In this document: positions 1,031 to 25,333 of the stretch, piece by piece | Layout: every line of letters begins with the position of its first letter | Position numbering within the stretch: position 1 is the stretch's first letter | Assembly (NCBI GenBank): GCA_951406725.2 | Contig: OX597818.1 | Span: 111,104,001-111,168,000, forward strand | Reading direction: 5' to 3' | From: Octopus vulgaris | Lineage: Eukaryota | Length of the DNA: 64,000 nucleotides | Notes under the pieces: generated by a model | Told to the model about the DNA's origin: nothing | The model's database searches: none | The model's input: the letters and a program-made list of their open reading frames with translations, nothing else | Position numbers and translations under genes: made by a program

Positions 1031-1064
1031 CGTGTAATCTCGAAAATGTTTCCTTGCTAGTTTA
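1031..1064 (-). CDS. Micro-exon E21 (34 nt, phase 2->0): KLARKHFRDYT; gene continues beyond the left edge
   Basis: Acceptor tttcttttgtag, donor GTTAGT; paralog of E9/E13/E17. Confidence 0.85.
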
Positions 1065-2869
1065 CTACAAAAGAAATAAAAGAACACACATCATCATGAC
1101 TGTCATCATCAACATAATTATCATCATCATGAAGTAACATTTTCAACAATAATTTCATCTTTAGATGGCGTTTTTAAAAAAAATATTTGAACCTAGATTT
1201 AAACTGCATTTCATTTACCTTTGTCTGTGAACCTCATTAGGAGTTTTATTCTCAGCTATGTGCATAGTATCAGACTTTTAATATTTATCTCTCTGCAAAA
1301 ACAGAAATATTACTTTCAAATTTTGGCACCAGGCCTGCAATTTTGAGGGAGTGAATAAGTCAATAATATCGACCATGTAATCAACTAGTACTTAGTTTAT
1401 TGAAAACATGAAGGCCAAAGGTGACCTTGGTGAGATATAAACTCAGAACGTGAAGATGGACAAAATGCCGCTAAGCATTTTACCTGGTATAGTAATGATT
1501 CTGCCAGCTCACCACCATAGCAAACACAGAAATATTGAACTGATGTCACTACTGGCCTTACTAATTCCATTATTGGTAAGACGTATATGTCCTGATTCTT
1601 TGATTCTCATGAGTTTCCCACTTTGGAATTACGGAATCTTCATTCTATAGCATTATATTAATTCATTTCTCACTCAATATGTATTAAAATATTTCTTCTA
1701 TCATTAAGGCTTTTCAATATTCTTCCATCCCAACCTTTAAAACCTTGCAGTGTTTCATGTACAAGGCCCTCCATAAATGCATGGCATGTTATAAATGCAG
1801 TTTTAATGTTCCAACTGAAACAATGCAGATGGAGATGCATAAAAAAAACATTTTCATCTCAAAAGATGAAGTTAATAATCTGAAAAACTTATAATCACAT
1901 CTGCAATAACTCATCTCAAACATTTACATATTTAAGAAACATTATTCTCAAATTAAAAATACACCCCTTTCTCATTTACAAAACAAACAGCCAAAGAAAC
2001 AAAGAAATACAGAAAACATGTTACTGTGAATTTGTTTAGTTCTGTAGAGTGTTAGAGTAATGAAGAATGAGGCCAGACTGGAGTTTATATTATAGTGGTC
2101 CTTGTGGTGTAAATGGACACCATACAGATTAATGAACCAAAGCTACATAGAAATCATAAAAGAGGATCACACCCTCAACAGGTCTGAGGTGTAGAATAAC
2201 ACTTGGGGCATTTGCTTGCTCATTTTCATATGCATAACAATTTGTCTCCTCATAAAATATTATCAATTAAGCACCAAAGATAACCTTTGCAGCATGTAGA
2301 GTCCACTGACTTTGGCTGTTGTTGTACATCATAACAACGTATTCCCAAAGATGATCATGTCTCTGAAGACTGGTCCTTAGGATTCACTTTAACCATGAAC
2401 CATTCAAAATGATGTGAATAAAGAAGCTTTACATTTGCCAGAGTAATCTCATTGCTAAACGGTTAATTAGTGTATATTTTTGTAGTATTATCATATTTAA
2501 TGATGCATATTTTTATGTCCTTTTAGACTGTATTATTTTCAAAATACAACTCATAAGAATTTAACGATATAATTTCTCATAGATTATTTTACACACATTT
2601 GTATTAAGCCTAATATCTTAAATTTCAAACTGAGAAAGCTGAGATATATCCAGGAAATACAGGAAAACATTGATTGAATCCATCAAACGATTGAGTTTGA
2701 ATTTCAAATGTAGCTTAAAATAGTATTTGTTTGTTCTTCTGCTCTCAACACTTCTTGATGATAGCAATCTGTGAAAATATCTCAATTTTAAATTTCAAAC
2801 TGAAAAAAAAAACAGAAAAATAAATTCATTCATTCACCTACCATCATACCCACCCACTATTTGTTGTCA

Positions 2870-3690
2870 GGTTAGAGTATCACATCTATAGGGTCTAATC
2901 AGAAGTGACCATCACTAGACCGCCTGACTGGATTTCCAAGAGACAATATTTTACTGAGACAACTGAGACAATATTTTACTCCAACAATTGGCTTGGCTTG
3001 AAGAGTCCATCTAGTGATTCTTTCGTGCAACATTCTAATCCAGTACCAGAGATGAAACTGTTCAATGGGCAGAAGTAGAAGTTTGCCCTGGAGAGAATCC
3101 CTAGCCTCCAAGCTATGTCAAGTAACATTACTCTAGAGACCTTTTGGTACACTGTGGCATAAAAAGAGGCAGCAGGGAGAGTAAAAACCCCCCAAGGCTA
3201 AGTCATAGGAGGACTCTGAGGTTAAGCTGGACTCTGATTTTAGATTGATCAATATAGGATTCTGGCAGAATATCTTCTCACTTTATAACAAGAAGCCCTC
3301 TTCCACCATTGACGTTATGAATTCAGCTGGAATTCTTCTCTCTAAAAAGAAAAGCATTCTTTGGGCTTGAAGAGAATACGCTGAGAATCTCAATCTGATT
3401 AGGACAAAATCTTCTGGTTGACATGAGGTACATATAGGGCCAAAGACTGACCTCACAGAAGCTAGAGTCACGGAGGTGATTAAAGCACTCAAGTGTGCCA
3501 AGGCAGCTGAAGTGGATGAAATTTCACCTGAGATGTTAAGAAAATTAAAAAGAGAAGATATTCTCTGGTTGATTTGTGTATAGCAGGTGGCATGGACTTC
3601 TGAAAGGACACCAAAACAATGGCAGTCTGGGGTGATGATCCCAATTTTGAAAAAGGGAGAGAAAACTGAAGGAAACAAATGTTTGGACTA
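2870..3690 (+). mobile_element. Old RTE-type LINE remnant
   Basis: + frame remnants VTEVIKALKCAKAAEVDEISPEML...WQSGVMIPILKKG typical of the pre-RT region; stops and frameshifts. Confidence 0.6.
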
Positions 3691-4173
3691 GGAATTCCTT
3701 GCTTTGTGTTATTCCTTGTTTCTGTTCAGGGTTGTTACATGACAAGGACTTATTCAAATTGAAATACTGAATATAAATATATTTAGTTATTTCTCACATC
3801 AACTTTGTCATGGATATTTTCTACATATACCTTTATACTGGTTTCAAAGTTTGGCACAAGGCCAGCAACTTTGGAGCAAACTAGATCAATTACAATGACC
3901 CCAGTGCTAAATTTTAACTTATTCTATCAAACATGAAAAGATGAAAGGCAAAGTCAACCTCAACAGAACTAAACTCAGGCAGTAAAGATAGATGAAATGC
4001 CACTAAGAATTATGCCCGTTGTACTAACAACTTTGCCAGCTCACCACTTTATATATATATATCATTATATTGTGATCACATTTATACATGACAATTACAT
4101 TATCATCATTTAACATCCTTATTTCAATAAAGTAGAAATCCAATTTAAACAAAATGTAATGAAAAATATTTAC

Positions 4174-4235
4174 ATAGCTTTTTCTTTGTCAAAAGATGGA
4201 AGATCAAGTAGTTCCTTCAAAAGTCCTTGAAAATC
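4174..4235 (-). CDS. Exon E20 (62 nt, phase 0->2): DFQGLLKELLDLPSFDKEKA(I)
   Basis: Acceptor atatttatag, donor GTAAAT; paralog of E12/E16. Confidence 0.85.
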
Positions 4236-4706
4236 CTATAAATATTCAAAATGAAAGAATATGTTTAGACTTTATAATAAAATTAATGATTTAACATTTG
4301 TAGTTCTATTTTACCATGTAACTGACTCTTCAATAAAACTGGATATTGCCTCACTTCCTGAAGCAATTGGGTGTTTTGCTTCTCTACATCCACAGCAACA
4401 TCAACTTTCAGATATTTCAGGAACATTGGAATAATTCCAGAACATATACTTTCAACCAACTTTGTACTGTAAGAAAATTAAAGTAATCATTTCTAAACAA
4501 TGCACAAGATCACACATTTTGTAGGAGTCTAGTTATTTGCAACACAGAGCTTAACTAATAAAGGAATGTGGTTTACTAATTAGGGTTTTAACTTCACCAT
4601 TATAAAGTAATGGCTTTGCTTCCTGGACCAAGAGGCACATTATGCCCCTGAGTAAAACAGTTCAGTATTATTTTCTTCCAGTCTATTTAGCTGACAATAA
4701 GCAACA

Positions 4707-5340
4707 ACAGGTACAGGGGTTTATCTTTGGCTAGGTATTTCTCCTGCAGCTGCCTTACCAGGAATATAGCATCAGTGGTACTTTTCCCAGGTACGAACCC
4801 AAACTGCATCTCATCTAAACTAACTCTCTCTCTAATTAGTTGGGCTATGACCCTCAAATACCTCAAGCCTTTGGTTCTCACGGCGCAGAACATTGGCAAA
4901 TTTTTTCTTATCTGCTTCCTCTCTGGCTAAATAGACCTGTCTCTTAGCTTCTCTTTTGGCAGTCTGATACAATTCCCTGCTACCACCATTCTTCCAGTGC
5001 TTCCAAGCCTGTCTCTTTTGTCTAATAGCCCTGTCTACAGCATTGTTCCACCACCACGTTATTTTGGGTCGAGAGGGGACTTTGCATCAACCACAGATCT
5101 GGTTAGTGGCCCTCAGCAGGTTGTCCCTTAGAAACCTCCAGTTGTCTTCTACACCATGTGAAGCTATATCCCTTTCTACTTTGTCAAAGGCTTCAAGTAA
5201 TATGTCCTTAAATCTCTGTCCATTTGCAGGATCTTTAAGCTTCCAGATCCTTCTTCTCCATGTTGGTCGTCTTCTGGCTGGCCTCTTAGTCCTGATCCTA
5301 AAGTCACTAACTACCAGTCTATGTTGTGGGGTACATTCTG
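4707..5340 (-). mobile_element. Internally deleted fragment of the same RTE family as 35250-39039
   Basis: ECTPQHRLVVSDFRIRTKR...KLKDPANGQRF and QFGFVPGKSTTDAIFLVRQLQEKYLAK nearly identical to the long copy. Confidence 0.9.
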
Positions 5341-5879
5341 TGAAGAAAGAAGACAAAATGGTAACAGCTTCAACAAAGTTGCACATTCAGAACTGACCTG
5401 GAATTAACCACATTGCATTTAATGTGTCCATATTTGGCCTAAATATTCTACCTGTTTCATATTCACACCAGCTACATTTGGCTTCACAAACCTACTCTAC
5501 AATGTCATTCTGCTAGAATGACAGCTGCTAAATTAATCCCAACACAGTAGGCACATTGTCCAATGGCAACTTTCCAGGTGCAATCCCATGGTCATTCATA
5601 ACAGGAAGGGTAAACTTTGAATAAAAAGGTAAAAAAAGAAAAAGGTAAAAAAAAGAAAACCTGCACTGAATTTGAGCCTAAGACTTATGAACTTGTAACC
5701 AAATACCTTATGCCCACAACCACTTCATTTCTACAGGGCATCTACTTTGGCAATTTATAATTAAATAATACCAGATTTACAAGCAATTCAGTTATTTTTA
5801 GTTCTCTTGTAATTGTTTAGCCCGAGGTCAGTCCTGATCTGCCAATATACTGCACTGTAAATAAATCATATCGACTAAC

Positions 5880-5913
5880 CTTACGGCCTTTGAAGAATTC
5901 CTCGGCAACTTTC
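5880..5913 (-). CDS. Micro-exon E19 (34 nt, phase 2->0): KVAEEFFKGRK
   Basis: Acceptor tttctcttgcag, donor aag|GTTAGT; same K-x-A-x-E-x-F pattern as the other short exons. Confidence 0.85.
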
Positions 5914-6973
5914 CTGCAAGAGAAACAAATAGACACATATTTTCAGCACATCATCACAATCATCTTCATTACTTCTACATCAATTCACAAAAGGAACCAT
6001 TGCAGAACTGTTATTTTATGTTTGTACATTTTATTACTTAAATATAAATTTAGAATTCATTTGAATAGGTTTAATTTCTGATTATCACCAGGCATCATAT
6101 TTGTGGATGTCTGTACAGTATGAAACTGGAATGTATTTAGCTTCCAAAGATTTCTCTATCAGCAAAAGCAGCCATGGTGAGTCGATGTCAGTTTTAGGTT
6201 TATCTTAACTGGCTTCTTAACAAGAGCATGGCTCTTGCTAATAGGTAAAGCATCTTGGTTTTCCAAAAGGAACAAATGAATAAATAATAACACAAAGTAT
6301 TATAAATGCTTCAAATTTACATTAAGCTTGAAACTCATGTTCATTCAATCAAATTAAGCTTCATTCAATTATTCTGGCAAAAGACTTTTGTCTTTGAATA
6401 ACAAGTAATTCTTCATTATCTCCATTCTGTACTGCTCACTGGCCAGTCCTTGGTCAGTTTTGGTAGCATATCAGGCATTTTAAGAAGAGGTTGCAAACCC
6501 TTTGATTTAACCCTTCCCCAATTATAGAGACAAAGACACTGTGGATGTGCCCTAAGATATTTTACACAGTACAATGACACTAATGCAAAGAAAGTTAGAG
6601 TGTTAAGAATTTATCCCTGGATTTGATTGGTAATTTATTTATCAGACCCAGGAAGATAGAAGGTAATGTTGACTTCTGTGGGATTTGAACTCATAGCAAA
6701 GCGTGCTAGAAAGAGAAGTACAACACTTTCAATCTGACACTCTTATGATCCTGTCAATTTCCACCAAACAAATACTTAGTAACTTTTTAATAGTCCTCTA
6801 AGCAAACATAGTTTAATAGCCACTGGAGTATGTAATAAATATTTTGGTATAAAACAAGAGAAACCTCAGTCATAATGCTGACTTACATGGAACTGCACCT
6901 TGTTACACATTGTGATATCACAGATTGGTTAATGATACTTTTCGTCTTTCTTTATTTGAATCATGTCTTTTCA

Positions 6974-7888
6974 CCCTTTAGTGTTGAAACTGGCTAAAAC
7001 CAGCCAACGTTAAATCCCCTTTATTTGTTCAAACCAACCAAATCTGACCGTATCCAACTGCTCTACGAAACTGCTAAAAAATGAACAAATCATGTTGCTG
7101 AATTCTCGTAGCTTTTAGATAATGTGCAATGAAGCCTTTCCCATTTTTATTCAAGTATAAATAGTGTGAAATTGTTTAAATCACATAGTTTTTTCAATAT
7201 TTGAAGAGAAGTCTGTAATTTGTTTTTAATGAAATGGCATCAGTAAGTAGCAATTCTGACTTTGAAGGTTTTACTCTTGATGATATAGAAAATATAAATG
7301 AAAACAAGAGTATTTTGTCTTCAGATGAATCTGATATTGATATTAGTGAATAGTCATCGGATGAGGAAGATCTTGAGAACGAATGTGATAAAAATGAAAG
7401 TGATGAAAATGATATCATAAACATGGCAACATGGTCAAAAATTACAACACCAATCACTATTCCTGATTTCACAAAAAAACACTGGTCCACAACACAATTT
7501 ACCTCATGATGCTCAACCATTGGACTATCTATTTTTATTTTTATTCAGAAAGTTTTTTTTAAACTGTTATGGAGGAAACAAACAAATATGCACAACATAT
7601 AATTTCTATTCGTGAAGGAAACGATCCATTATGGCAGCCAACTTAAACTGTGGAAATGAGAACATTTTTCACAATCAATATTATGTTTGGTGTTAAACAG
7701 CTTTCTTGACTGTGAAACTACAGGAGTCCTGATATAAGGTATGCTGATCTATATATGTCAAGCATAATGTTGAAGACACGGCATTCAAAAATATCTCAGT
7801 ATTTACATTCAATTAATTCTGCTAATGACCCCAACAAAAACAACCTAAAATATGATCCCCTGTACAAAGTATGTCCTGTAATTGATTG
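6974..7888 (+). mobile_element. piggyBac-like transposon 5' remnant (transposase pseudogene)
   Basis: Begins ccctttag; from ATG 7234 an acidic N-terminus SDFEGF..SSDESD then ETNKYA...EMRTFF...ISQYLH...YDPLYKV typical of PGBD-type transposases; multiple stops. Confidence 0.7.
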
Positions 7889-8622
7889 CAAGTTACTTGG
7901 CAACCCTACTGGTGCTAGTGCCAAGTAAAAGTATCTGTATCAATGCCACATAAGGGCACTTGTGCCGTTGTCAGATTAGAAACCTCTATGCTGCTGCCAC
8001 ATAAAAAGCAACAAGAACACTCTGTAAAGTAGTTGGCATTAGGAAGGGCTTCCAGCTGTAGAAATAAAACCAAAACTGATTGGAGCCTATCTGTCTTCCA
8101 TGCTGGCATGGGTTGCCCAATCTGAAGGAACTAGCAAGATGGAGAGCTGTAACAGGCTCCAGTCATCTGCTTCAGCAAGGTTTCTATGGACAGATGCCCT
8201 TCCTAATGCCAACCACTTTACAAAGTGTACTGAGTGCTTTTATATGTGACACCAACACAAGTTCTTGACAATTGTTCAATTCATTTCAATGTGAACTGGG
8301 GAAAGAAATTATCTTGGACTGAAAATTCCCCTCTTATTCTGTTTCTCTTCTGTGGGTGTATGGAATAGGTTTGAGCCTTTTGTCTTGCAGTTAAATACAT
8401 ACAAACAAAAATAGTGTATTAAAAGTTGCGCAACCAGGACTTACTGAAGTTGAAATACTGAACATAGATATTATGTGTTGCCTCATGAAAACAGTGTCAT
8501 GACTCTTGTTACTATTTCCTACATTTATATTTCCTTATAGCGTTATCATATTTATACATCACAATCTCCTCATAATTCAAAGTCAAAATCAAACTTAAAC
8601 AGAGTGTTATAAAATTACATAC

Positions 8623-8687
8623 TTGATGTCTTCAGCTGACATATTGTCTGGTTGTTCATTGAGTTTCTTTTCAAAAGCTTTATAATC
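8623..8687 (-). CDS. Exon E18 (65 nt, phase 0->2): DYKAFEKKLNEQPDNMSAEDI(K)
   Basis: Acceptor ctcttctag, donor GTATGT; paralog of E10/E14. Confidence 0.85.
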
Positions 8688-8897
8688 CTAGAAGAGTTTA
8701 CAATAAAAGCATTTGTTGTAACTTTATAATAAAATGCAATGACTTAACATTAATAGTTCTATTTTGGACTGGTTAATGAAACAAAACATTATCTCACTTA
8801 CATGTACACCTTAAAAAAAAAAAACCTGATTTTTTTCTCTATACATGCTAACTAAGAATAAAGACACAGTTCTATATTTAAGAGATGAGGAATTATG

Positions 8898-9389
8898 TAC
8901 GTTATCTACACTTGACGGATATTTGTCCTCATCTTGTTTGTAGTTAACACATTTCGGCTGATATACCCTCCAGCCTTCATAAGGTGTCTTGGAGAAATTT
9001 TGAACCTGGGTTCTCATTCCTAAGGTATTTTTCGTCGTTGTTGTTGTTGTTGTTATTGTTATTGTTATTATTATTATTATTATTCAGGTCACTGCCTGGA
9101 ATCGAACTCAGAATCTTGGGGTTAGTAGTCCATGCTCTTAAACACTATGCCCACAGGCATATGGCGTAGTGGCTAAGAGCGCGGGCTACTAACCCCAAGA
9201 TTCCAAGTTCGATTCCAGGCAGTGACCTGAACAACAACAACAATAACAAGATTGAAAAATACCTTAGGAATGAGAACCCAGGTTTCAAATTTCCACAAGA
9301 CACCTGATGAAGGCTGAAGTGTATATCAGCTGAAACGTGTTAACAACCAACAAGATGAGGACAAATATCTGTCAATTGTAAATAATGTA
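8898..9389. mobile_element. Head-to-head palindrome of a tRNA-headed element with hammerhead-like tail
   Basis: Arms are reverse complements about a centre at ~9153; A box tggcgtagtgg, B box gttcgattcc (9207-9216), (AAC)n linker, CTGATGA 9304-9310 ... GAAAC 9332-9336. Confidence 0.8.
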
Positions 9390-11047: not shown

Positions 11048-11081
11048 CTTGTGCATTTCAAAATATTCTTGTGCTAGTTTC
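11048..11081 (-). CDS. Micro-exon E17 (34 nt, phase 2->0): KLAQEYFEMHK
   Basis: Acceptor ttccttttgtag, donor aag|GTTAGT. Confidence 0.85.
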
Positions 11082-12251
11082 CTACAAAAGGAATAAAGAA
11101 ATACAAATCATCATTACCATCGTCATTGTCACCACCACCACCATCACTGCCAACAACAACAACAACGCTGCCACCACTGCCATCATCACCATCATCATTT
11201 AGTGTCTACTTTTCATGCTGACATGGATTAGACAGTATGACTGGAGCTGGTAAACCAGCAAGTTGCACTGGGTTCCAGTCAGATTTGGCAAGGTTTCTAC
11301 AGCCGGATGCCCTTCCTAATGCCAAGAGTGTAAAGGGTGTCTTTAATATGCCACTGGCATGGGTGCTGTTATGTGCTACCAGCACAGGTGCACTTCTGTG
11401 ACAGTTATGTGGCACTAGCATCAGCCATGACTACAACTTTACTTCGCTTGACGAGTCTTCTAAAGCATGGCATATCGCCAATGGTCTTGTTCACTTGTCA
11501 CCTCTACAATTAATTTCATCTTTAGAATGGATTTTTCTTCTTTTTAATATTGGAACCTACATTAGGACTTCATTTCAATTAGTTTCATCTCTGAATCTCA
11601 TTAGGAGTTTTATTCTTGGCTTAATGCATGGTACCAGATCATTAATATTATAGCAAATATTTACAAATATTTGCTTCAAATTTTTGCACAGGGCCTGCAA
11701 TGACAACTGGTACTTATTTTATCAACCCTGAAAAGAAGGAAGGCAAAGGTGACTTTGGTGAGATATAAACTCAAAATCTGAAGATGGACAAAATGCCACT
11801 AAGCATTTTGCCTGGCATAGTAACGATTCTGCCAGCTCACCACCATAGCAAACACAGAAATATTGAACTGAAGTCACTACTTGCCTTACTAATTACATTA
11901 TTGGTAAGACGTATATTTCCTGATTCTTTGATTCTCATGAGTTTCCACTTTGGAATTACGAAATCTTCATTCTATAGCATTATATTAATTCATTTCTCAC
12001 TCCATATGTATTAAAATGTTTATTCTGTCATTAAGGCTTTTCAGTATTCTTCCACCCCAACCTTTAGAACTTCACAGTGTTTCATATGCAAGGCCCTCCA
12101 TAAATGCATGGCATGTTATAAATGCTAATGATTTTGCCAGCTTGCCACCCAATATGAACCCTTATATTGTTATCATATTTACACACCACAATCTCCTCAT
12201 TTCATTAACAATAAAAATTGAAGTTAAACAAAATGTAATAAAAATATTTAC

Positions 12252-12313
12252 TTAGTTTTTTGTGTGTCGAGATATGGAGGATAGAGAAGTTCGTTCAAAA
12301 AATCTTCATAGTC
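12252..12313 (-). CDS. Exon E16 (62 nt, phase 0->2): DYEDFLNELLYPPYLDTQKT(K)
   Basis: Acceptor atatttatag, donor GTAAAT; paralog of E12/E20. Confidence 0.85.
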
Positions 12314-13775
12314 CTATAAATATTCAAAATGAAAGCATATGTTTAGACTTTTATAATAAACTGAATGATTTAATATCTGCAGTTCTATTTTACCATGTAA
12401 TTGACTCTTCAATAAAACTGGATATTGCCTCACTTCCTGAAGTAATTGGTTGTTTTGCTTCTCTACATCCACAGCAACATCAAACTTCAGATATTTCAGG
12501 AACATTGGAATAATTCCAGAACATATACTTTCAACCAACTTTGTACTGTAGGAAAATTAAAGTAATCATTTCTAAACAATGCACAAAATCACACATTTTG
12601 TAGGGGTCTAATTATTTGCAACACAGAGCTTGACTAATAAAGGAATGTGGTTTACTAATTAGGGTTTTAACTTCACAATTATAAAGTAATGGCTTTGCTT
12701 CCTGGACCAAGAGGTACATTATGCTCCTGAGTAAAACGGTTCAGTAAATTTCCCTCTAATCTACTTAGCTGACAATATGCAACAGCTGAGTGATGCTGGA
12801 GCCCTCTCTCACTCCAGCTATCATGTCCTTACTGTTGGGTGAAAGGTAGGATGGTTGAGGAGTTGTTTGTATTGAATTGTCACTGCATAGACACATAAAT
12901 GACATATTGAAAATACAGTTTCAGGTTATATTATTTTGTGTGAGATAGCTCTGTTTTGTTTTGGTTATTTTTTCTTTTTTTTTTTTTTGTTAGTCACTTT
13001 TCTAAATACTTGTCTAAAAGGTTGCATGAGTAAGAAGTTTATGTTGTAACTAAATGGTTTTACACACAATCTAATTGCCCCACAAATTGGGCAAGTGTCT
13101 ACCATGACAGTTATGAACTGACTAATATTTTGTGAGTTGAATTTAATAAATGGAAATTGTGCAGAATATCACTGTATGCTGTTACCTTCACACGTATTTA
13201 TTTGTGTTATAGAGAAAAATTGAAAAACTGGTGCTTTTTGAATAAAGTACGCAGCCACAGCTGTTTCATTCTCTTCACAATCACAAATAAAGTGAAACGG
13301 TCTATAGTGACTGACTGGTTATAAACAAATAAACATGAACCCCATATATAAAAATATAAATGAATCTGTATGTCTTGCAAGACAATGGAGCTGTGTGACT
13401 GAACATAGTATTTTTTATGGCAGACCAGATGTTGCCTATGCATACAATCCTCTACATCACCATACTAACAGTGAAGCCAGGGAAAATGTGAAGACTAATA
13501 CAACTTGGTTTCAGTATCATCAGATGTTTTTGTCAGTAGGAAAAAAAAACAACAAAAACAAACCAGAAAACCCTCATCTGAAGTTTGACAACCTTTGTAA
13601 TCCATTGCTCTCGGTTAGAACTACTATTATCAAACAAGAAAGAATGAAAATTAAAAGTCAATTTTAAATGTTTGGAACTAAAACAAATACTGCAAGGCAT
13701 TCTCTCTGACACCCAAACTAATTGGTCAATATAATGTCATAGAAATATATAAATAAATAAAAAGTAATAACTAAC

Positions 13776-13803
13776 CTTTGAAAAGCAATTTTCTGCTAGT
13801 TCC
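13776..13803 (-). CDS. Micro-exon E15 (28 nt, phase 2->0): ELAENCFSK
   Basis: Acceptor ttttgcttttgtag, donor aag|GTTAGT. Confidence 0.8.
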
Positions 13804-15377
13804 CTACAAAAGCAAAAAACATTTTCATGAAAGAGCACCATTATAGATTCATATACGTATTAAAAAAGTTTCCATGTGTCTTAAACTAGCCATGTTGATG
13901 GCACTTGCAAACCTGCAGACATTATCGAGAACTAGTAATGCTCCTTGGTAAAAATGCTATGTCAAAGATTACAGGTACTTTTCAAATATCCCTGGGTTAA
14001 AAGTTCTCAAGAACAGAGCACTTAGTTTGTTGCCATTGGTATCCAGAGATTCCTTGAAGAATGTCATCAATTTACCCTGCAACTAGTTCGTTAGTTCTCT
14101 ATAAATTACCAATGTAAAAATTCCACCAGTTGCATTATTCAACAGGTGGGTGGCTGTGAGCATTTGACAACATTCCTGATGCCAGAACTGCAGCATTGTC
14201 CAAGAGATGAGCTGTAAAAAGGTTTGCTTGACAAAAGGCATCAAAGCTTGCACAATGCAAGTGAATCTCTGTAAATGTTTTGGTCTCAGCACACATCAAC
14301 AGCCATTGGATGTTGGGAACTTGCACAGAGGATGTCAGCAGCAGATAAATTACCTGACACAGTAAACATTCCTTCATGATAAAGCAAATAAGGGTATGCA
14401 AGAATTGCACAGTAAAATATTTTGTATAACATTTACTTGTGTGGCATTATTAGTGAATGAACAAAAAATATTTACATTAAAAATTATAGAGTTCTATAAA
14501 TGCTTCAAATTCTCTTTAATTACATTAGAAATTCTTATGTAATTAGTGAACATTAACTCAAGTCAATCAACAAAATAGTAATTGAATAAAGAATGATTCT
14601 GCATTATATCTCCTCTTCAACTGAAAATTACCTCCTTTCTGATTTTTATTCATTGTTTTGGTTTTTCCATTCGAGTGACTTGCTTGGACCACCGTAACTC
14701 TTCAACACCAGATGTTGTGATTGAACAATGAGGCATAAACATCTGGTCTGTTCTAGTCCCATTGGTCTTTCTATAGCTGAAATATTTCAGCTGTGTAAAC
14801 CATGACAACAGATGATACTAATAGTTCACTAACCGAATTGGTTGATTTTGGCCATTGACAGTTTGCTATCTGTTCATCCATTCAACATCTAGTCATAGTT
14901 GCCATTAATTCAATAAGCTCATCTGCCGAAATAGTTCACATCCATGATTTTAACATACCATAGCTTGTGTGGTTACATACTACTTCTCCTCTTGCTGGGA
15001 CTCCGCCAGGTGCTACAGATCCAGATCAGAGTAGACTTGGAAACAATAATGGCTAAGAGGGGGTTTCACACTCCTCATAACCTTGAAACTTCTGAACCAG
15101 AGTTCCACAATTTGACACAGTTTATAGTTGAAACCAAGATTTTTAGTTAAATAAATAAATTTTAAAATGGTGTAAGAAAAAGTTGCATAACTAGGACTTA
15201 CTGAAGTGGAAATACTGAATATACATTTCATTATCTCTCACATCAACATTGTCGTGACCTCTCTTAGTATTTTCTACATATACATCCTAATATTGTTATC
15301 ACATCTATACATCACAGTTTTCTCATATAATTAAAAGCAAAAATTAAATTTAAGAAAGATGTTATAAAATAACTTAC

Positions 15378-15442
15378 AAAGCTTTTGCAAAATCAATCCA
15401 GTCTGGAAACCATTTCAGTTCTTTTTCAAACTTAGACATACC
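15378..15442 (-). CDS. Exon E14 (65 nt, phase 0->2): GMSKFEKELKWFPDWIDFAKA(L)
   Basis: Acceptor cttttctag, donor GTAAGT; paralog of E10/E18. Confidence 0.85.
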
Positions 15443-15724
15443 CTAGAAAAGTTTATAATAAAAGCATTTGTTGTAACTCTATAATAAAAGTAATGAGTTG
15501 ACATTAATAGTTCTATTTTCGATTGCTTTGGACTATTCAATGAAAGTAAACATTATCTGACTTACAGAAACACTTCAGTTGTTTTGCTTCTTGATGCCCA
15601 TAATAACACCAAGTGTGGCATGTAAGATTCAAAAGAAGACAGGGAAGGAATACAAAAATAATTCCAGAATGTATTGTTTCAAACAAATCTATGGTTTACT
15701 AAAACTAAAATGATTTCTAACATT

Positions 15725-16047: not shown

Positions 16048-16997
16048 TATTTCTGACATAGGTGTCTAACTACAAACTTTGCCGGTGTGATGTAGTCTAT
16101 GCATTTTAAGAAGGGGAGAAGAAAATGTTGTTATTGCTGAGAGAGAAATACAGTGAGATAGCAAGAGTGTGTGTGAAAGATAGATAGACAGGTAGAGTTG
16201 TCAACATAGTAACTAACAAGTTTTGATTAAAATGCAGGAATTTTAAATACAAGTCATTCAAAGAAATCAACACAAACTTAAAAGCAAACAAAACTTTCAC
16301 TATATAAAAATATCGATAGTTATTCTTTTGATTGCTTGTGTGTGTGTGAAAGACAAATAGAGAGGTAGAGTGTTGTTACCATAATAACTAACAAGACTTT
16401 CCCTATATATAAGTTTACTATTAAAGGGTGGTGCATGCATGATTAACAAATATTTTCACTGGCTGCATAGTAATGTGTAAAGACCTAGTATTTTACAAAC
16501 CTTGGAAGGATGAAAGGGATAACTGACCCCCATAGCATTTGAAATCAGACTTTAAAGGGAAAAGGGATGTAAATGGTCTGCAAGTAAACAATGACATCCG
16601 AAATAATAAAATTGAATAGGACTCATTAAAGAAACGATGAAAATCTTTCTCTTTGATTAACTTCAACCAAGAAATCAGTTTCTCTTTCATTTAACAAAGT
16701 CAACAGCCATAGCAATAATAGACGCAAAAAGCAGAAGATGATTGCTGCTGTGGTTACATCTGTCATAACTAGTTGTACTGTTAATATTTACCTTCCCTCC
16801 AAACAAATATCTGGTAAACTTAAAACAAATGTTAAGGGCTCTGGCTGGATGAGATAAAATAGATGAGAGATAATTAATCTGTGGATAGGATACTTGTCTG
16901 TTTCAACTCACATTAACAGAGGATTTACTAACTTATTTCCAACAGCTACACAAACTCAATATGTTACCTTGTACATAAATAAAAAGTAAAGACTAAC

Positions 16998-17034
16998 CGA
17001 GGGGTGTGTTTTAAAACATTGTTTTGCTGTTTTC
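16998..17034 (-). CDS. Micro-exon E13 (37 nt, phase 2->0): KTAKQCFKTHPS
   Basis: Acceptor tttcttttgcag, donor GTTAGT; paralog of E17/E21. Confidence 0.85.
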
Positions 17035-18509
17035 CTGCAAAAGAAATAAAGAAACACATCATCATCATCATCATATTTACATCTTTAGACAAAAATAAAC
17101 ATCATAAGATTATAACATTTTGTACAATTGATTTCATTTTTAGACATGAACTCTTTTTTAATATTTGAACCTAGATTTGAACTTCATTTCAATTACTTTA
17201 ATCTCAGAACTTCATTAGGAGTTTTATTCTTGGCTATTAATATTTATCTCTCAGCAAAGACAGAAATACTGGTTTCAAATTTTGACACAAGGCCTGCAAT
17301 TTCGGGGGAGGGGTAAGTCAATTACATCAACTCTATTGATCAACTGGTACTTATTTTATTGACCTTGAATGGATGAAAGGCAAAGTTAACCTTGGCAGAA
17401 TTTCTACTCAGGAAGCGAAGATGGACAAAATGCCGCAGAGTACTTTGCCTGGCATAGTAACAATTCTGCCAGCTCACCACCATAGCAAACACAGAAATAT
17501 TGAACTGAAGTCACTACTGGCCTTACTAATTACATTATTGGTAAGACGTATATGTCCTGATTCTTTGATTCTCATGAGTTTCCCACTTTGGAATTACGAA
17601 ATCTTCATTCTATAGCATTATATTAATTCATTTCTCACTCCATATGTATTAAAATATTTCTTCTATCATTAAGGCTTTTCAATATTCTTCCATCCCAACC
17701 TTTAGAATCTCGCAGTGTTTCATGTACAAGGCCTTCCATAAATGCATGGCATGTTATAAATGCAGTTTTAATGTTCCAACTGCAACAATGCAGATGGAGA
17801 TGCATAAAAAATATTTTCATCTCAAAAGATGAAGTTAATAATCTGAAAAACTTATAATCACATCTGCAATAACTCATCTCAAACATTTACATATTTAAGA
17901 AACATTATTCTCAAATTAAAAATACAGCCTTTCTCATTTACAAAACAAACAAAGGAACAAAGAAATAAACAAAACATGTTATTGTGAATTTGTTTAGTTC
18001 AGTAGAATTTTAGAGTTAAGTAAGAATGAGGCCAGACTGGCGCTTATCTTCTGATGGTCCTTGTGGCATAAAATGAGTCCAGCTCAATAGATGGTCTACA
18101 ATTCGTTGTATATAATTTAAAGTCATTTTATTTGATAATTTTGATGCAATAGTATTTAAACTAATACTCTTTGGTTTAATGACACACTTTAACTATTGTG
18201 TTGGTTTGATATGTTTTGTTACGCTTATGCTACTGAGTTCAAGGAAGTATTTTGCAAATGATGGTGATTTTCATATCTCTTAGTGAATATAACCCACTCC
18301 TACAGCTCGTCCTTTTGCTTTGATTCTGTTATTGCTCTACTCAAATCTTTCAGAGTAAAGATGTCTTCATTAATAGGTCAAGGCGGCAAGCAGGCAGAAT
18401 TGTTATCACGCTTGACAGAATGCTTAGCAGTATTTTGCCCGTTGCTATGTTCTGTGTTCAAATTCCACTGAGGTCAATAAATTAAGTACCAGTGAAACAC
18501 TTGGGTCAC

Positions 18510-18854
18510 TGTATAATCAGTACTCGTAATAAAGTATGATTTTACATTGGAAGCACATCGTTATCTAAAAGAATTTCTATCCATTACTCAACATTTAGGG
18601 ATAGAAATAAACGTAATAGTACCGGTCTCAGCAAACTGATTTGGGATCTAAAAGACCACAATGAACAATTTCATTTAGAATGGTTGATTCTCTCAATCTT
18701 GATACCTTGTGACAAAGGCAAGGAATTCTGTCTTCTCTGCAATTCTGAGCTATTTTTCATTATTTTTTCTAAAAATCCCCTAGTAAACACAGATATAAAG
18801 CGAGCATACAGATGTAAACATTGGCAAAAACACACTTTTAGTGCATATAAGTAG
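18510..18854 (+). pseudogene. GIY-YIG endonuclease C-terminus of a Penelope-like element
   Basis: Translates FYIGSTSLSKRISIHYSTFRDRNKRNSTGLSKLIWDLKD...CLLCNSE...LVN...CKHWQK*, matching PLE GIY-YIG with a C-terminal CxxC..CxH; absent from the ORF track; TGA at 18537. Confidence 0.8.
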
Positions 18855-19059
18855 TCTCTATTATTATATATAATTTAAACTTTAATTTCCTTTATATTTA
18901 ACATTCACTATTAATATCCCTACCCTTTCTGTAAGCTACTTATGACGTTATATCATATAACGTTTTTTTAAACAATATTAATAGTGTTCAGTTAATCACT
19001 GTACAAATCCATCCTTTTTTGCTAAAATGTCTTATTGACAAGTTTCGTTTTTTTCTCAC

Positions 19060-19141
19060 TTTCCTGAAGAGAAGATTGCATTGTTTATACCATTTATTCT
19101 TTTGAATAGTATAAGTGGAATTTTCGAAACATATGTCGAAA
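19060..19141 (+). ncRNA. Minimal type I hammerhead ribozyme in the PLE 3' end
   Basis: Stem I TTTC/GAAA, core CTGAAGA 19064-70, long stem II, GAAA 19126-29, palindromic stem III ACATATGT, GUC triplet ending 19137. Confidence 0.75.
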
Positions 19142-19424
19142 ATAAAAATATTTCCTTTACACCTGCGTTAAACTCCATTTATTTATTCATATGTATATAT
19201 ATATAGATATATATATACATATATCTATATATATATAATAATGCATGCATGCATACATACATACATACATACGTCATTCTAAAAATAAACAATCAAGTCA
19301 TTGAAACATTAAAGTTATGAGATAAAGCATAATTAATTCAAAACAATGTGAATAAATAAGCATTACATTTGACAGGGTAATCTGAATGTTGAAGGGTTAA
19401 ACAAGAAGTTATAAGATTACTTAC

Positions 19425-19486
19425 AAAACTTCATCTTTTGGAATGTATGAACGACCGAACAGTTCATTAAGAAAATTTTCATACTC
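19425..19486 (-). CDS. Exon E12 (62 nt, phase 0->2): EYENFLNELFGRSYIPKDEV(L)
   Basis: Acceptor atatttatag, donor GTAAGT; paralog of E16/E20. Confidence 0.85.
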
Positions 19487-20326
19487 CTATAAATATTCAA
19501 AATGAAAGCATGTATATAGACTTTATAAGAAAATTCATGATTTAACATCTGCAGTTCTATTTTACCATGTAAATGACTCTTCAATCAAACTGGATATTGC
19601 CTCACTTCCTGAAGCAATTGGTTGTTTTGCTTCTCTACATCTACAGTAGCATCAAATTTCAGATATTTCAGGAACATTGGAATAATTCCAGAACAAATTC
19701 TTTCAACCAACTTTGTACTGTAGGAAAATTAAAGTAATCATTTCTAAACACTGCACAAGATCACACATTTTGTAGGAGTCTAGTTATTTGTCCACAAAAC
19801 TCAACTAATAAAGGAATGTGGGTTTAAAACTCACCATTATAAAGTAATGGGTTTGGTTCCTGGACCAACAGATAAATTATGCCCCTGAATAAAACAGTTC
19901 AGTATTATTTTCTTCCAGTCTATTTAGCTGACAATAATCAACAGCTGAGTGGTGCTGGAGCCCTCTCTCAATCCAACTATCATGTCCTCACTGTTGGGTG
20001 AAAGGTAGGATGGTTGAGAAATTATTTGTATTGAATTGTCACTGCATAGACCCGTCAAACACTTAGTGTAGTGAAAGCATAGTTTCATGTTACCAGGTCA
20101 TATTGTGATAGCTATAGAGTTATTTTTGTGGATTATTTTTCTAAATACTTGACTAATAATATTTTCTCAAGCCTGGAAAGGTGAAAAAGAAAATTGACAA
20201 ATATGACATTAGCAGTCAAGAGTACAATTGGTTGTAAGAAAATACAATGTTGCTTATAAGGCAGTGATGTTCATTTCAAACCATCAGATGATGTGAAGAC
20301 AAGGCTACACACAAACACACACACAC

Positions 20327-20330
<4 letters not shown>

Positions 20331-20422
<92 letters not shown>
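20331..20422. repeat. Long (CA)n microsatellite within a minus-strand family-1 SINE (~20280-20580)
   Basis: Uninterrupted CA run. Confidence 0.95.
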
Positions 20423-20425
<3 letters not shown>

Positions 20426-20619
20426 TGCAATGAGATTCTTTCAGTTTCCATCTACCTGATCCACTCACAAGACTTTGATTGGCTAGGGGCTATAGTAGAA
20501 GACACTTGACCAAGATGCAGCACAGAGAGACTGAACTTAAAACCACATGGATAGGAAGCAAGCTTCTGAACCTCACATCCATATCTTTGCCATATGTACT
20601 AAAAATGCACTCAAATTTT

Positions 20620-21260
20620 CTGCTACCAAATTTCAAACATAAAATTTGATTTGATCCCAGGTTAATGTAGAAATAATTACCTTAGGGATTGAGTATCGAG
20701 ATAGAACCTGGAATCACGTGATTGCTAAGTTAACTTCTTAAATGCATATAAATGCTTGTGCTTGCTTTGTGGGTGTAAATGTGGATGGCTTTATTATAAA
20801 TGGGTGGGGTGGGTAGAATGTTCAATTTGAAATCACATGATTCCTCATTCAATCCCATAGCACAGCTCCTTGGACAAGTCTTTTCTACCACAGTTATCGT
20901 TTGACCAAGATCAGAATCAGTAAAGTCCATGCAAAAGAGCTTTCAAAGAGCTTGCTGCTACCAAATTTCATACTAAAATTTCGTTTGACCCCAGGTTTAG
21001 GTAGAAATATTTACTTTAGGGGTTGTGCATTGGGATAGAACCTGGAATCACATGATTGCAAAGTAAACATATTAAATGTATGTCCTCTCTGTGGGTGTGA
21101 AAGTGGATGGCTGTATTTTAAATGGATATGGCCATGGTTGTGTGGATAAGATGTTCAATTTGAAACCACATGATTCCTGATTCAATTCCAATGCACAGCA
21201 CCTTGGACAAGTGTTTTCTACCACAGTAATGATTTGACCAAGTCCTTCTGAGTAGAATCA
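20620..21260. repeat. Local direct duplication, ~335-bp period
   Basis: ctgctaccaaatttca...gatagaacctggaatcac...atgttcaatttgaaa repeated at ~20620 and ~20955. Confidence 0.75.
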
Positions 21261-21326
21261 AGTAGATGCCTGCAAGCTCATCAAACACACACACATGCAT
21301 ACATATACACACACACACACATACAT

Positions 21327-21360
<34 letters not shown>

Positions 21361-21913
21361 GATGAACTTCTTTCAGTTTCCATCAAACCAAATCCTTTCA
21401 TAAGGCATTGACTGGCCTGAAGCTATAGTAAAAGACACTTGTTCAAAGTGCCATGCAATGGGACTGAACCAAGAACCATGTGGTTGGGAAACAAGCTTCT
21501 TACCACACAACCACACCTGAACCTACTGGAAATGGTTTTCATGAAAGGCCAGCTGGTGTATCTGCATAGAAGTGTCCACCTGGCCATACCACCAGTGTTG
21601 TCTATGATAAAGGTATGGGCTGATACAACTTAGGAGTTCTGCTACAAGAGACAAGTAATAAGAACTAATGCTAAGCTTCTAATGTGATGCTTTGACAATC
21701 TTTGTAATCCATTCTCCTGGGATGGTACTACTATTATCAAACAAAAAAGAATGAAAATTAAAGTCATTTTTAAATGTTTAGAACTAAAACAAATACTGCA
21801 AGGCATTCTCTCAGATGCTCAAACTAATTGGTCAATATAATGTCATAGAAATATATAAATAGATAAATAAATGAATAAATAATTAGATAAATAAATAAAG
21901 AGTATCAACTAAC

Positions 21914-21944
21914 CGGTAGATCTTTAAAACGCTCCACTAATATC
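21914..21944 (-). CDS. Micro-exon E11 (31 nt, phase 2->0): ILVERFKDLP
   Basis: Acceptor ttttcttttgcag, donor GTTAGT; positional paralog of E15. Confidence 0.8.
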
Positions 21945-22592
21945 CTGCAAAAGAAAAGAAACATACATCTTCATTGCCCCATCATCAATATCATGAAAAA
22001 GAATTATTATGGTTTTATATACGTATTAAAAAAGTTTCCATGTGTCTTAAACAAGCCATGTTGATGGCACTTGCAAACCTGCAGACATTATCGAGAACTA
22101 GTAATGCTCCTTGGTAAAAATGCTATGTCAAAGATTACTGGTACTTTTCAAATATCACTGGGCTAAAAGTTCTCAAGAACAGAGCACTTAGTTTGTTGCC
22201 ATTGGTATCCAGAGATTCTTTGAAGAATGTCATCAATTTACCCTGCTACTAGTTCGTTAGTTCTCTATAAATTACCAATGTAAAAATTCCACCAGTTGCA
22301 TTATTCAACAGGTGGGTGGCTGTGAGCATTTGACAACATTCCTGATGCCAGAACTGCAGCATTGTCCAAGAGATGAGCTGTGAAAAGGTTTGCTTGACAA
22401 AAGGCATCAAAGCTTGCACAATGCAAGTGAATCTCTGTAAATGTTTTGGTCTCAGCACACATCAACAGCCACTGGATGTTGGGAACTTGCATGGAGGATG
22501 TCAGCAGCAGATAAATTACCTGACACAGAAAACATTCCTTCATGATAAAGCAAATAAGGGTATGCAAGAACTGCACAGTAAAATATTTTGTA

Positions 22593-23430
22593 TTAGCAGT
22601 ATAGCCCGGCACTGCTTGGGATTAAGTTAGGATTATTAAGCTAATCAAGTGCTTTGTTTCAAACCAAACTGAGTAACACTGACGTCAAATTTGAGTGTAA
22701 TCTGTTAAAATTGGTAAATGTTTGGCTGAAAATAGAGTGCAGACAATTTGATTGGGAAATCCATAAGGAATCGTTTTATCGATTTTTCCATACATCGATT
22801 GTTTTTTTTTTTTTGGTGGTGGATTGGAGTAACTTAGGAAAACTCATCAACAGCCTTAACAAAAAAATAAGGGGCCTGGCCCTTCTAGCTTAACTCTATG
22901 AGCAACTTGGCCAAGCACTAATATCAGCTGAGTGAGCATTGTTGTTGGAAAAGTCAGCATTGTCCAATAAAGAAGAGGAAGAGTCCATGAGTCATGCTGC
23001 CATAATTTGAGAATATGCCTGGCCAATGCTTCCGTATCACCTGTTTATAACCATATTGGCTGTAGTGATGACCTGTTCTTCTTTCTACTTCACTATAGAC
23101 AACATTGCATGTTCTGCCCTGTGGAGCATACACAAAAGAGTGTTTCTACTCCCTACACAAGAGCAGGCCACATAAAGTTGCCCATGTGAAAAGCACAGCT
23201 CTCCCAAATTGATGACCACCACCAATAGTGTTTAGCCTTGGGATTTGTTGATGGACATGGCAATCTGCAGATGTTAAACGGTATGTCTGACCCCATGGGA
23301 CAAAGGTGCATCCTTGAAATGAAAACATTTCTCCTCCTCCCATACCCTGTAACAATGGTGGCCTCAATAAAGTGGGGTGTCAGGGACTTGACTAGCAAGC
23401 AGGTCCCATTGCACTGTTTAGGCGGATAAA
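22593..23430 (-). mobile_element. Helitron 3' fragment (PIF1-type helicase C-terminus, terminal hairpin and CTRR)
   Basis: CNGT.LLV..L....IEATIVTG...VFISR..L.P..DIPF, then frameshifted INKSQGQTL...FSHGQLYVACS; ends cccaagcagtgccggg-ctatactg-CTAA. Confidence 0.8.
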
Positions 23431-24114
23431 GCATGTACGCTTTATTTCATTTTAGTTTTATTGAATGATTGTGTAAAATTTTCTAAATAGGATATATTGT
23501 AAGTCTACACACACATACACACATGCACACACAAACACACACTTGCTGTTGTTGTGATGCATGTACTCTTTATCCCATTTGAGTTGTTGTTTTGAGTGGC
23601 AGGAGATAAGTTTCAGCGAACTTGAATAGCATGTTCTGAACTCGTTTCTAATTTTGAAATGCCACATATCAAAAAATGCTTTGAATCACATAGGAAGAAA
23701 AATGGCTACAGCATGAAGTCATCGATTTGCTTCGATCGCCAAGAAAGCAAAAGTACATACAGAGAATTTCATAAACAGAAATAAGTAAATTGTGGCTGAA
23801 AATAGCAGTCAAATAAAGAATTTAAATATTAAAACAAACAGAAATTAAGGAACGAAATATGCTAGTTGCTAATTACATCATTTTGATATAATTAGATTTT
23901 GAAATGTTCCAATAGAAAATACCCATATTTTTAATTGACCACATGTAGGTCATGTGGTATCCAGAATGTGATATGAACTAGAGTACCACGCAACTCTCAG
24001 GTAGGATGTGGGTATCTAACACTACCTATCTGATCCTTGCCTCACATATAATACAATGTTAAAATATTATGCTGCTCATGTCAAAATTAATTAAGATATT
24101 GTATTGGGACCCTA

Positions 24115-24422
24115 GTGGAGGCACATAGCCTAGTGGTTAGAGCAGCAGACTTGTGGTTGAGGGATCACAGGTTCAAATCTCAGACCAGGTAATGTATGTG
24201 TTTATGACAAAACACCTAAGCTCCATGTAGCTCTGGCAGAAGGTAATGGCAAACTTCTGCTGACTCATTTGCCACAACTTCCTCTCACTCTTTGCTCCTG
24301 CATCTAAAAGCTCACCAGCGACGGATCGATATCCCATCCTAGTGGGGAATCTATACACCAATGAAACCAGGAAACTGACCCTTATAAGCCAGGCATGGCT
24401 CGAAAAGGAGCAAACAACAACA
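24115..24422 (+). mobile_element. tRNA-derived SINE family 2, second copy
   Basis: Colinear with 126-435; TSD attgggacccta/attgagacccta at 24103-14 and 24423-34. Confidence 0.85.
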
Positions 24423-24856
24423 ATTGAGACCCTATGATGTTGGCTCAGGAGCCAACATGTTAATCAAAAAAATGAGCGTGTAACAAACCCAGCACTTTAT
24501 CTAGTAAATGAGCATGGCTGAGACTCTTCACAGTTGAGGATTTTATTGAAGATATTTATTCTTTGGACAAAAAGTGACCCTTATGCAGTCAGTGAGTGTG
24601 ATTTGGACAATCAAACTGGTGAAAGTAATGAGGAAAAAGTGATTCAGTTGAACAAATATTGTTGTTGAAAGATAAGGAGATTATTGTTACTCTCCTAAAT
24701 TATTCATAATTCTGTCCATTAGTTTGCCTGCAATCATTACACTTGAACTGTTTATGCAATTATCTATATTTTGCTTAGGAACCCAAGTGGAGAGTAAAGT
24801 TAGACATAGGGGCACAAGTCTGAGAGGGTTAAACAAGATATTATAGAATTACTTAC

Positions 24857-24921
24857 TCGGTTTCAGCTTTTTCAAAACTCTTTGGAGAGTCCTCTAGCAT
24901 CTTTTGAAGACTTCTATATTT
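24857..24921 (-). CDS. Exon E10 (65 nt, phase 0->2): KYRSLQKMLEDSPKSFEKAET(E)
   Basis: Acceptor cttttctag, donor GTAAGT; upstream intron homologous to those of E14 and E18. Confidence 0.85.
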
Positions 24922-25333
24922 CTAGAAAAGTTTACAATAAAAGTATTTGTTGTAACTTTATAATAAAAATAATGATTAGACATTAATAGTTCTATCTTTG
25001 TATTGCTTTGGACTGTTCAATGAAAGTAAACATTATCTGACTTGCAGAAACAATTCAGTTCTTTTACTTTTTGATGTCCATAGTAACATCAAGTGTGACA
25101 AGTATGATTCAGAAGGAATATAAAAATAATTCCAGAACATATTGTTTCAAACAATTCTACAGTTTACTAAAGCTGAAATAATAATTTCTAACAGGTATAT
25201 TATATTGGCAAATTTTGTAGGTGTGACATAGTCTACATATTTGTTTCCAGTATGTGACTAGTACTTATTTTATCATCCTTGGTGGGATAAAAGGTAAAAC
25301 TGACTCCTGTAGGATTTGAAGGGCTAGTATTTA

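Follow-up and report, generated by a model that had tools for sequence, protein, structure and literature searches.

Homogenised intron blocks between old, divergent repeat exons in a giant uncharacterised Octopus gene

A 64,000-nucleotide stretch of the Octopus vulgaris genome (assembly GCA_951406725.2, contig OX597818.1, forward-strand positions 111,104,001 to 111,168,000), hereafter the window, is part of a single giant uncharacterised gene of ~322 kb on the minus strand, in which in-register blocks of different introns reach 93-98% identity while the short repeat-coding exons between them do not resemble one another closely. A preliminary description of the window had reported this inverted conservation, which we find to span the whole ~240-kb repeat array and not the window alone. 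The exons are older than the split from O. bimaculoides, and many of the blocks are younger, in register and mosaic. We consider it likely that intragenic conversion or unequal crossover between in-register intron blocks produced this pattern, the exons being protected both by selection and by having diverged; conversion of introns combined with selection for distinct exons was among the explanations first proposed, and it is the one that the results favour.

Analysis was extended to 400 kb around the window after an intron block proved to recur ~200 kb beyond base 1 (coordinates are those of the window, negative values lying before its first base). The O. sinensis orthologue, LOC115212235, encodes a 1,935-aa protein annotated as 'uncharacterized' (XP_036358878.1), the sole protein retrieved with the terminal exon, which maps onto the O. 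vulgaris contig from position 81,869 to about -240,060. The predicted O. vulgaris protein is ~2,060 aa long and contains, in order, four UBA-like units, 37 repeats of ~32 aa, a weak SEP relic and an alanine-rich tail. The repeats are encoded by 74 exons (37 A and 37 B), located by a splice-profile scan, two of them by a looser one; all have AG/GT ends, no stop occurs over 1,189 codons, and the exon chain agrees with the O. sinensis RefSeq model. On the minus strand, A exons (phase 0-2, 56-65 nt) alternate with B exons (phase 2-0, 28-37 nt). The stepwise lengths and open frames first noticed in the window hold for all 74, with lengths of 28/31/34/37 or 56/59/62/65 nt. Splice flanks set a four-exon unit, A1-B1-A2-B2, which corresponds to two ~32-aa repeats and is present ~18 times. 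The residue pattern of the repeats suggests a helical fold. A first candidate for E1 at 63561-63585 was dropped, as the O. sinensis protein places that exon at 63371-63476.

Six proteins fell under E 0.001 among the 1.84 billion representatives searched. The relatives comprise O. bimaculoides proteins (P0002, P0003 and P0009), Argonauta hians fragments (P0004 and P0006-P0008) and one further fragment (P0005), and on these searches the family appears to be restricted to octopods. The repeat profile matches P0006-P0008 repeatedly, revealing a repeat array of the same pattern in Argonauta; P0004, P0006, P0007 and P0008 are four near-consecutive partial models on one contig and probably represent one split orthologue. 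A PDB sequence search yielded one chance match, and the ESM Atlas gave no usable match for the repeats (matches for the C-terminal part, at 0.80 or below, were not used). Among open full texts, supplements lying outside the search, no literature on the gene was found under its locus, protein or UniProt identifiers or under octopus p47/UBX terms.

Same-class paralogous exons have median identities of 0.55-0.65 (648 pairs), and repeat units share a median of 31% of amino acids, only 2 of 153 unit pairs exceeding 50%. Exon divergence computed over the array is thus not comparable to intron divergence (identities of 55-65% against 93-98% in the blocks). Near-identity is a property of blocks and not, as the preliminary description had it, of whole introns: 77,727 of the 245,001 array bases (32%) lie within in-register matches of at least 200 bp and at least 93% identity. 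Of the 160 self-matches at these thresholds, 150 connect introns belonging to one class, and nine cross an exon. Our recounts within the window reproduce the earlier manual ones, with 18 of 62 nt differing between E20 and E16 (a change in 12 of the 20 whole codons and in the junction codon, hence 13 of 21) and 13 of 34 nt between E21 and E17, against 20 mismatches and one gap in 433 columns between introns 4236-4667 and 12314-12746 and 12 mismatches in 577 between 13851-14427 and 22017-22593. The exons beside this last pair, E15 and E11, are only 43% identical. Across 11 copies of one exon class, identity stands at 0.93 over the last 20 nt ahead of the acceptor and at only 0.58 over the exon's first 10 nt. 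The flank medians computed together with the 648-pair exon comparison leave out bins below 65% identity or less than 80% aligned.

Silent sites indicate that the exons separated long ago. Paralogous exons have a proportion of synonymous differences (pS) of 0.39-0.47 and a synonymous divergence (dS) of ~0.5, with a median terminal-branch dS of 0.25. Exon silent divergence is ~4 times the mean autosomal dS of 0.123 separating O. bimaculoides from O. sinensis, as given in the accessible part of the source that also dates the bimaculoides split to 13-34 million years (PMC10925132; further sources on rates, misfolding and dates, likewise available in part, are PMC13669787, PMC6863430 and 10.1101/2023.05.16.540928), and it is ~8-10 times the divergence of the intron blocks. 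Where a flank reaches at least 93% identity (133 pairs), 28% of the codon pairs specifying the same amino acid still differ silently. RNA-editing or cDNA-templated exon change was rejected as a source of these differences, because twofold codons ending in a purine differ less (144 of 789) than those ending in a pyrimidine (228 of 905).

Each exon is nevertheless conserved between species. Relative to O. sinensis, 26 of 1,028 repeat residues are changed (97.5% the same) versus 3 of 580 outside the repeats (p 0.003; E37-E44, absent from the O. sinensis model, are left out and the alanine tail is excluded from the non-repeat part). Of 27 O. sinensis differences mapped to the unit alignment, all but one affect variable columns, the exception lying in the core (p 0.0035). 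Relative to O. bimaculoides, 218 of 289 repeat residues are identical (75%), as are 314 of 383 in the N-terminal part, and at the protein level the exons are nearer to their O. bimaculoides orthologues than to their own paralogues. Because one-to-one orthologues are conserved while units are only 31% alike, the repeat identities were fixed before the bimaculoides split; since each exon is conserved between species, the exons are old rather than hypervariable, the latter description being apt for comparisons between repeats and not for those between species. These data also bear on the idea that the array expanded recently, with the introns giving its true age and positive selection alone separating the exons in the manner of venom genes. 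The star-like intron identities and the site class described below would accord with such an expansion, which is contradicted by the O. bimaculoides orthology, by the 8- to 10-fold excess of silent divergence in the exons and by the Argonauta array; we regard it as very improbable.

The intron blocks are young by comparison. Of 37 in-register blocks for which both nearest exons have bimaculoides orthologues, 18 are significantly younger than the bimaculoides split (proportion of differences significantly below the 0.113 implied by dS 0.123). Tests of the pairwise homoplasy index (PHI) type, applied to copies selected for alignability, revealed recombination in the A2-upstream block (12 copies, p 2e-4 to 2e-3) and in the A1-downstream block (8 copies, p 0.008). 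The block at 13851 is a decayed dispersed repeat, 67-83% identical to seven copies on other contigs, and its copies before E11, E15 and E71 are 97-98% identical to each other although they lie beside unlike exons. Three high-identity blocks used as queries match at high identity inside the array only, so that recent transposon insertion was rejected as their source. Nested genes and known RNAs in the blocks were rejected after a search for a long shared open reading frame (ORF) in 13800-14500, which found none, and an Rfam search of positions 1-33000, which returned no family except one simple-repeat miRNA match.

These observations point to conversion, and not constraint, as the cause of the blocks. 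Alternatively, the blocks might be splicing or RNA-structure elements serving the tiny exons and held by purifying selection since the units arose. That the blocks often reach the splice site itself, that their pairwise identities are star-like and independent of distance, and that one of them lacks a recombination signal would fit this proposal. It would require, however, that several unrelated blocks of 300-1000 bp evolve at about a tenth of the silent rate, and the blocks are missing from many units: the A2 block is found in 12 of 18 A2-class introns and absent from the other six, and the 13851 repeat relic occupies 3 of the 18 introns preceding B1 exons, not being found before the remaining 15. 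Together with the ORF and Rfam results and the recombination signal in two of three blocks, this makes constraint an unlikely explanation. Under the conversion model, the homologous intron blocks of the old units would pair in register and be overwritten by conversion or unequal crossover, and hence look young. Tracts that overwrite exons would mostly be purged by selection, and exons ~40% different would probably also halt tract extension. The repeats would have been pushed apart partly by positive selection at non-core positions and would now be preserved position by position.

Codon models provide evidence for such selection. They were fitted to 17 of the 18 units (U38, a recent copy, was omitted) over 67 codon columns, on an IQ-TREE topology with branch lengths only rescaled. 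Between paralogous repeats, the nonsynonymous-to-synonymous rate ratio (omega) under M0 is 1.26-1.48, and M2a is favoured over M1a with a likelihood-ratio test statistic (LRT) of 34.8 (F3X4) or 24.9 (F61), placing 24-35% of codons at omega 2.2-2.9. In null simulations the LRT rose to no more than 5.7 in 14 runs, and to no more than 9.7 in 27 runs whose trees had been shuffled by exon. The non-core columns noted from this analysis are 6, 11, 17, 18, 32, 37, 39, 43 and 56 of the unit alignment. Diversifying selection, the other process suggested by the preliminary description, is thus supported for part of the codons, and the silent-site excess in the exons argues against it as sole cause.

It is also conceivable that conversion homogenises the introns and the exons escape it passively, behind a barrier of divergence or length, or through avoidance of near-identical repeats that are prone to misfolding. 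The scarcity of unit pairs above 50% identity would be expected in that case, and the accessible parts of two sources hold that tandem homologous domains diverge so as to avoid misfolding (PMC4660218; PMC6863430). The faster change of repeat exons than of the remainder between species points the same way, as do exons that have been overwritten or recently copied (E27, identical to E63, and E38-E41). A passive barrier predicts no omega>1 class, however, and ten exon pairs are divergent despite flanks of at least 93% identity on both sides. Avoidance of similar neighbouring units was not seen, neighbours being no less alike than random pairs (0.34 vs 0.32 identity). We consider passive escape improbable, and selective removal of tracts that cross exons would better account for these data.

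Several observations weigh against conversion with selectively maintained exons. The divergence of 19 of the 37 tested blocks is not significantly below that expected, the blastn screen is blind to blocks more than ~15% diverged, and block age was judged by a genome-wide synonymous rate standing in for orthologous O. bimaculoides intron DNA. The PHI-type test of the B1-downstream block (9 copies) gave no recombination signal (p 0.50), and block identity shows no decay with distance in the four largest classes. Identities cluster at 93-98%; because few are at 99-100%, conversion may have ended or may proceed slowly. A simple divergence-peak model would suggest a less abrupt step at the acceptor, where identity shows no more than a slight shoulder (0.86 at 20-40 nt), and in two classes exon identity rises weakly with flank identity (rho 0.30 and 0.42). 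As for selection, M0 omega exceeds 1 significantly with F61 only (p 0.004; F3X4, p 0.08), and silent-site constraint in very short exons or near splice junctions may inflate omega.

Near-identical blocks could also arise as an assembly artefact, from collapsed or duplicated haplotypes. The wider region does hold a 100-N gap, and the O. sinensis model lacks E37-E44. In three large public sequencing runs (X10-X12), however, depth in contigs over 13851-14404 is 2-4 times that in nearby single-copy contigs (120.7, 18.3 and up to 20.2, versus about 42-58, 4-8 and 5-9), the assembly holding three copies of this block; depth over the A2 block is raised too. All four runs examined show the second copy's letters at 13973, 13991, 13997 and 14081. 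The copies differ by 2-7% and adjoin different exons that are found in two other species, which makes an artefact extremely improbable.

The models of two relatives each lack exactly eight exons, in register: E37-E44 in O. sinensis and E52-E59 in O. bimaculoides P0003. The introns bounding the E52-E59 gap have 680 bp in common at 94%, and those bounding the E37-E44 gap share pieces of ~100 bp only. Annotation or assembly gaps could also explain both absences, and for E37-E44 the choice is between a change in repeat number and an annotation gap. The E37-E44 region (-56,801 to -89,085) contains recent copies of E18-E20 and E33 that are 94-95% identical over 1-4 kb, exons included. The youngest-looking tract lies in the introns upstream of E42 and E46 (about -76,260 and -92,120), with 3 mismatches and 2 gap columns in 601 beside exons that are 86% identical. 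E27 (-23,042) and E63 (-146,165), 123 kb apart, are identical exons inside a 1,567-bp match at 96.9%, an instance of tolerated exon-crossing conversion.

The gene's origin appears to lie in its neighbour. A p47/NSFL1C-like gene on the plus strand (111212530-111243300, or window +108,530 to about +139,300) is arranged head-to-head with the repeat gene, its start codon at +108,530 being ~27 kb from the start of the latter. p47/NSFL1C is a UBA-SEP-SHP-UBX cofactor of p97/VCP. In the neighbour, UBA_4 and SEP are matched by Pfam; we take further motifs to be SHP-like and UBX-like, Pfam giving no confirmation of UBX on a 42-aa piece. Each of the two genes opens with an exon of 35 codons, and these exons can be aligned gap-free (z 8.0; 20,000 shuffles produced no score as high), with a phase-0 intron after the second UBA helix in both. 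All four N-terminal UBA-like units of the repeat protein share this phase-0 position at their ends, and in the whole protein both UBA_4 and UBA_8 pass (PF14555, 33.8 bits, cut-off 21.8; PF22566, 29.3 bits, cut-off 26). The SEP-like C-terminal stretch resembles the neighbour's SEP domain weakly (p 0.017 global, 0.044 local), and both of its exons share start and end residues and phases with the neighbour's SEP exons. That SEP in the repeat protein has no Pfam match and that the relic is so faint count against this derivation. The repeat gene also differs from p47 in its four UBA-like units, its 37 inserted repeats and its tail of 285 aa (47% alanine); neither an SHP pattern nor a Pfam search for UBX found a match in it. 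Judged from these sequence features, the gene is probably derived from p47 without being a member of the p47 family. An inverted local duplication of p47/NSFL1C would have founded the octopod gene, in which the UBA-like exon was multiplied to four and recognisable p97-binding parts were lost, before a four-exon unit encoding two ~32-aa repeats was amplified ~18 times. The repeats themselves were rejected as UBA copies: the best score on p47 exons 1-2 was 0.3 bits, not significant at the 95th percentile of the 1438 scores reported from 2000 shuffles. A second SEP-domain match in the genome lies on contig C21 (23688691-23688849).

This ancestry informs what can be said of function. A secreted venom or gamete-surface protein, one of the roles first envisaged, is unlikely because no signal peptide is seen: a simple hydropathy scan (not a trained predictor) revealed neither a hydrophobic leader nor a membrane segment, the maximum 19-residue value of 1.24 lying inside the alanine tail, and the putative parent is a cytosolic p97 cofactor. 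The suggested 'recognition module' is possible. Tentatively, the protein might be a cytosolic, elongated helical scaffold that offers a different binding surface in each repeat and uses its UBA-like head to link partners to ubiquitin. More doubtful is the further proposal that a p97 cofactor has here become an intracellular recognition protein peculiar to octopods, in which the 37 repeats form a positively selected library of distinct binding surfaces and the head routes targets to ubiquitin. A conflict with a pathogen, a selfish element or within the germ line would then be the selecting force, and the homogenised blocks would serve as exchange points at which four-exon units are added, dropped and reshuffled in frame. 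Isoforms could be diversified further if A+B exon pairs, any of which can be left out without shifting the frame, were skipped.

The evolutionary pattern is already known in a few genes, among them the spider silk gene Flag, for which Hayashi and Lewis (2000) is reportedly the source; distinctive here are the scale, the four alternating intron classes, the complex exons conserved by position and the p47-like origin. One close parallel, as described in the accessible part of its report, is SmPoMuc of Schistosoma mansoni, where tandem exon-plus-intron repeats also lie within a gene and the authors describe conversion restricted to introns with selection preserving exon differences (PMC2576457). 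On that partial account SmPoMuc is a family of mucin genes built from two or three types of exon, whereas the octopus has a single gene of p47-like origin that lacks a leader peptide and whose 74 exons, most of them unique, fall into four classes. The portions available on Flag and Argiope MaSp2 describe intragenic concerted evolution with iterated introns 94-99.7% alike, locally of two alternating types (PMC9779670; PMC3563967). There the MaSp2 exons are highly homogenised and of low complexity, in contrast to the complex octopus exons, which share ~31% identity at the protein level, are preserved position by position between species and are separated by four alternating intron classes. For primate red/green opsins and colobine RNase1 duplicates, the accessible text reports homogenised introns, exons closer to their orthologues and inferred selection (PMC3924837). 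Those cases, so far as that text extends, involve two or three whole genes and few selected sites; the octopus gene has ~18 units, and almost all of its exons form very sharply bounded divergence peaks.

A pattern mostly known from two paralogues or from low-complexity repeats is thus available as replicate divergence peaks, ~18 units and four intron classes within a single gene that has orthologues in three further octopods. Given aligned O. bimaculoides DNA, one could directly measure how long tracts are, how exons escape and how strong selection is. An octopod-restricted, unstudied protein of this size with a traceable origin beside p47 is, moreover, a candidate cephalopod novelty in ubiquitin/p97 biology, and if its repeats do bind distinct targets it would represent a new kind of diversified intracellular sensor. 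Features within the window are listed in Table 1.

Table 1. Exons and homogenised intron blocks in the window (window coordinates)
Feature	Position	Strand	Basis or remark
E1, 6th exon of gene	63371..63476	-	third UBA-like unit, phase 0 end; P0001 178-212 matched, 2 changes
E2, phase 0-2	61822..61889	-	O. sinensis protein mapping
E3, phase 2-0	58801..58888	-	O. sinensis protein mapping
E4, 23 nt	54464..54486	-	O. sinensis protein mapping
E5	51310..51379	-	O. sinensis protein mapping
E6	46411..46508	-	O. sinensis protein mapping
E7, fourth UBA-like unit	40851..40950	-	exon alone: UBA_8 E 2.7e-4, UBA_4 E 9.3e-4, below Pfam cut-offs
E8, 65 nt, phase 0-2, link to repeat array	32480..32544	-	O. sinensis protein mapping
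Repeat exon E9, B2, 34 nt	27768..27801	-	splice-profile scan
Repeat exon E10, A1, 65 nt	24857..24921	-	splice-profile scan
Repeat exon E11, B1, 31 nt	21914..21944	-	splice-profile scan
Repeat exon E12, A2, 62 nt	19425..19486	-	19/20 aa kept in O. bimaculoides
Repeat exon E13, B2, 37 nt	16998..17034	-	splice-profile scan
Repeat exon E14, A1, 65 nt	15378..15442	-	splice-profile scan
Repeat exon E15, B1, 28 nt	13776..13803	-	splice-profile scan
Repeat exon E16, A2, 62 nt	12252..12313	-	16/20 aa kept in O. bimaculoides
Repeat exon E17, B2, 34 nt	11048..11081	-	splice-profile scan
Repeat exon E18, A1, 65 nt	8623..8687	-	recent copy E38 68 kb downstream
Repeat exon E19, B1, 34 nt	5880..5913	-	splice-profile scan
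Repeat exon E20, A2, 62 nt	4174..4235	-	19/20 aa kept in O. bimaculoides
Repeat exon E21, B2, 34 nt	1031..1064	-	array continues 61 exons, ~210 kb past base 1
Homogenised block upstream of A2 exons, copy before E20	4236..4706	.	in 12/18 A2 introns, 89-97%
A2-upstream block, copy before E16	12314..12899	.	96.9% over 586 bp to copy 197 kb off
A2-upstream block, copy before E12	19487..20158	.	about 90%
Block before E15	13851..14427	.	old dispersed-repeat relic; 97-98% among three array copies
Block before E11, same as E15 block	22017..22593	.	12 mismatches/577 to E15 copy
B2-upstream homogenised block, copy before E21	1429..2391	.	14 array matches, 93-100%, self included
B2-upstream block, copy before E17	11744..12125	.	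sequence match within array
B2-upstream block, copy before E13	17417..18066	.	sequence match within array

Other elements occur in and near the window. A GC-richer element at ~35240-38250, which by eye we take to be LINE-like (long interspersed nuclear element) with endonuclease and reverse-transcriptase coding sequence, has related pieces at 4708-5339, 28832-29944 and 41842-43470 (66-92% identical). The CpG-richer stretch at ~44250-46130 may be a rolling-circle transposon fragment, again judged by eye. Beyond the window, at +160,630 to +161,082 on the minus strand, lies an ORF that we assume to resemble an alpha-1,3-fucosyltransferase's final exon. A 75-bp tandem array (59478-61494; 16.7 copies, 92% matches) sits in the E2-E3 intron; its unit contains an inverted repeat, and inverted partial copies flank the array at both ends.

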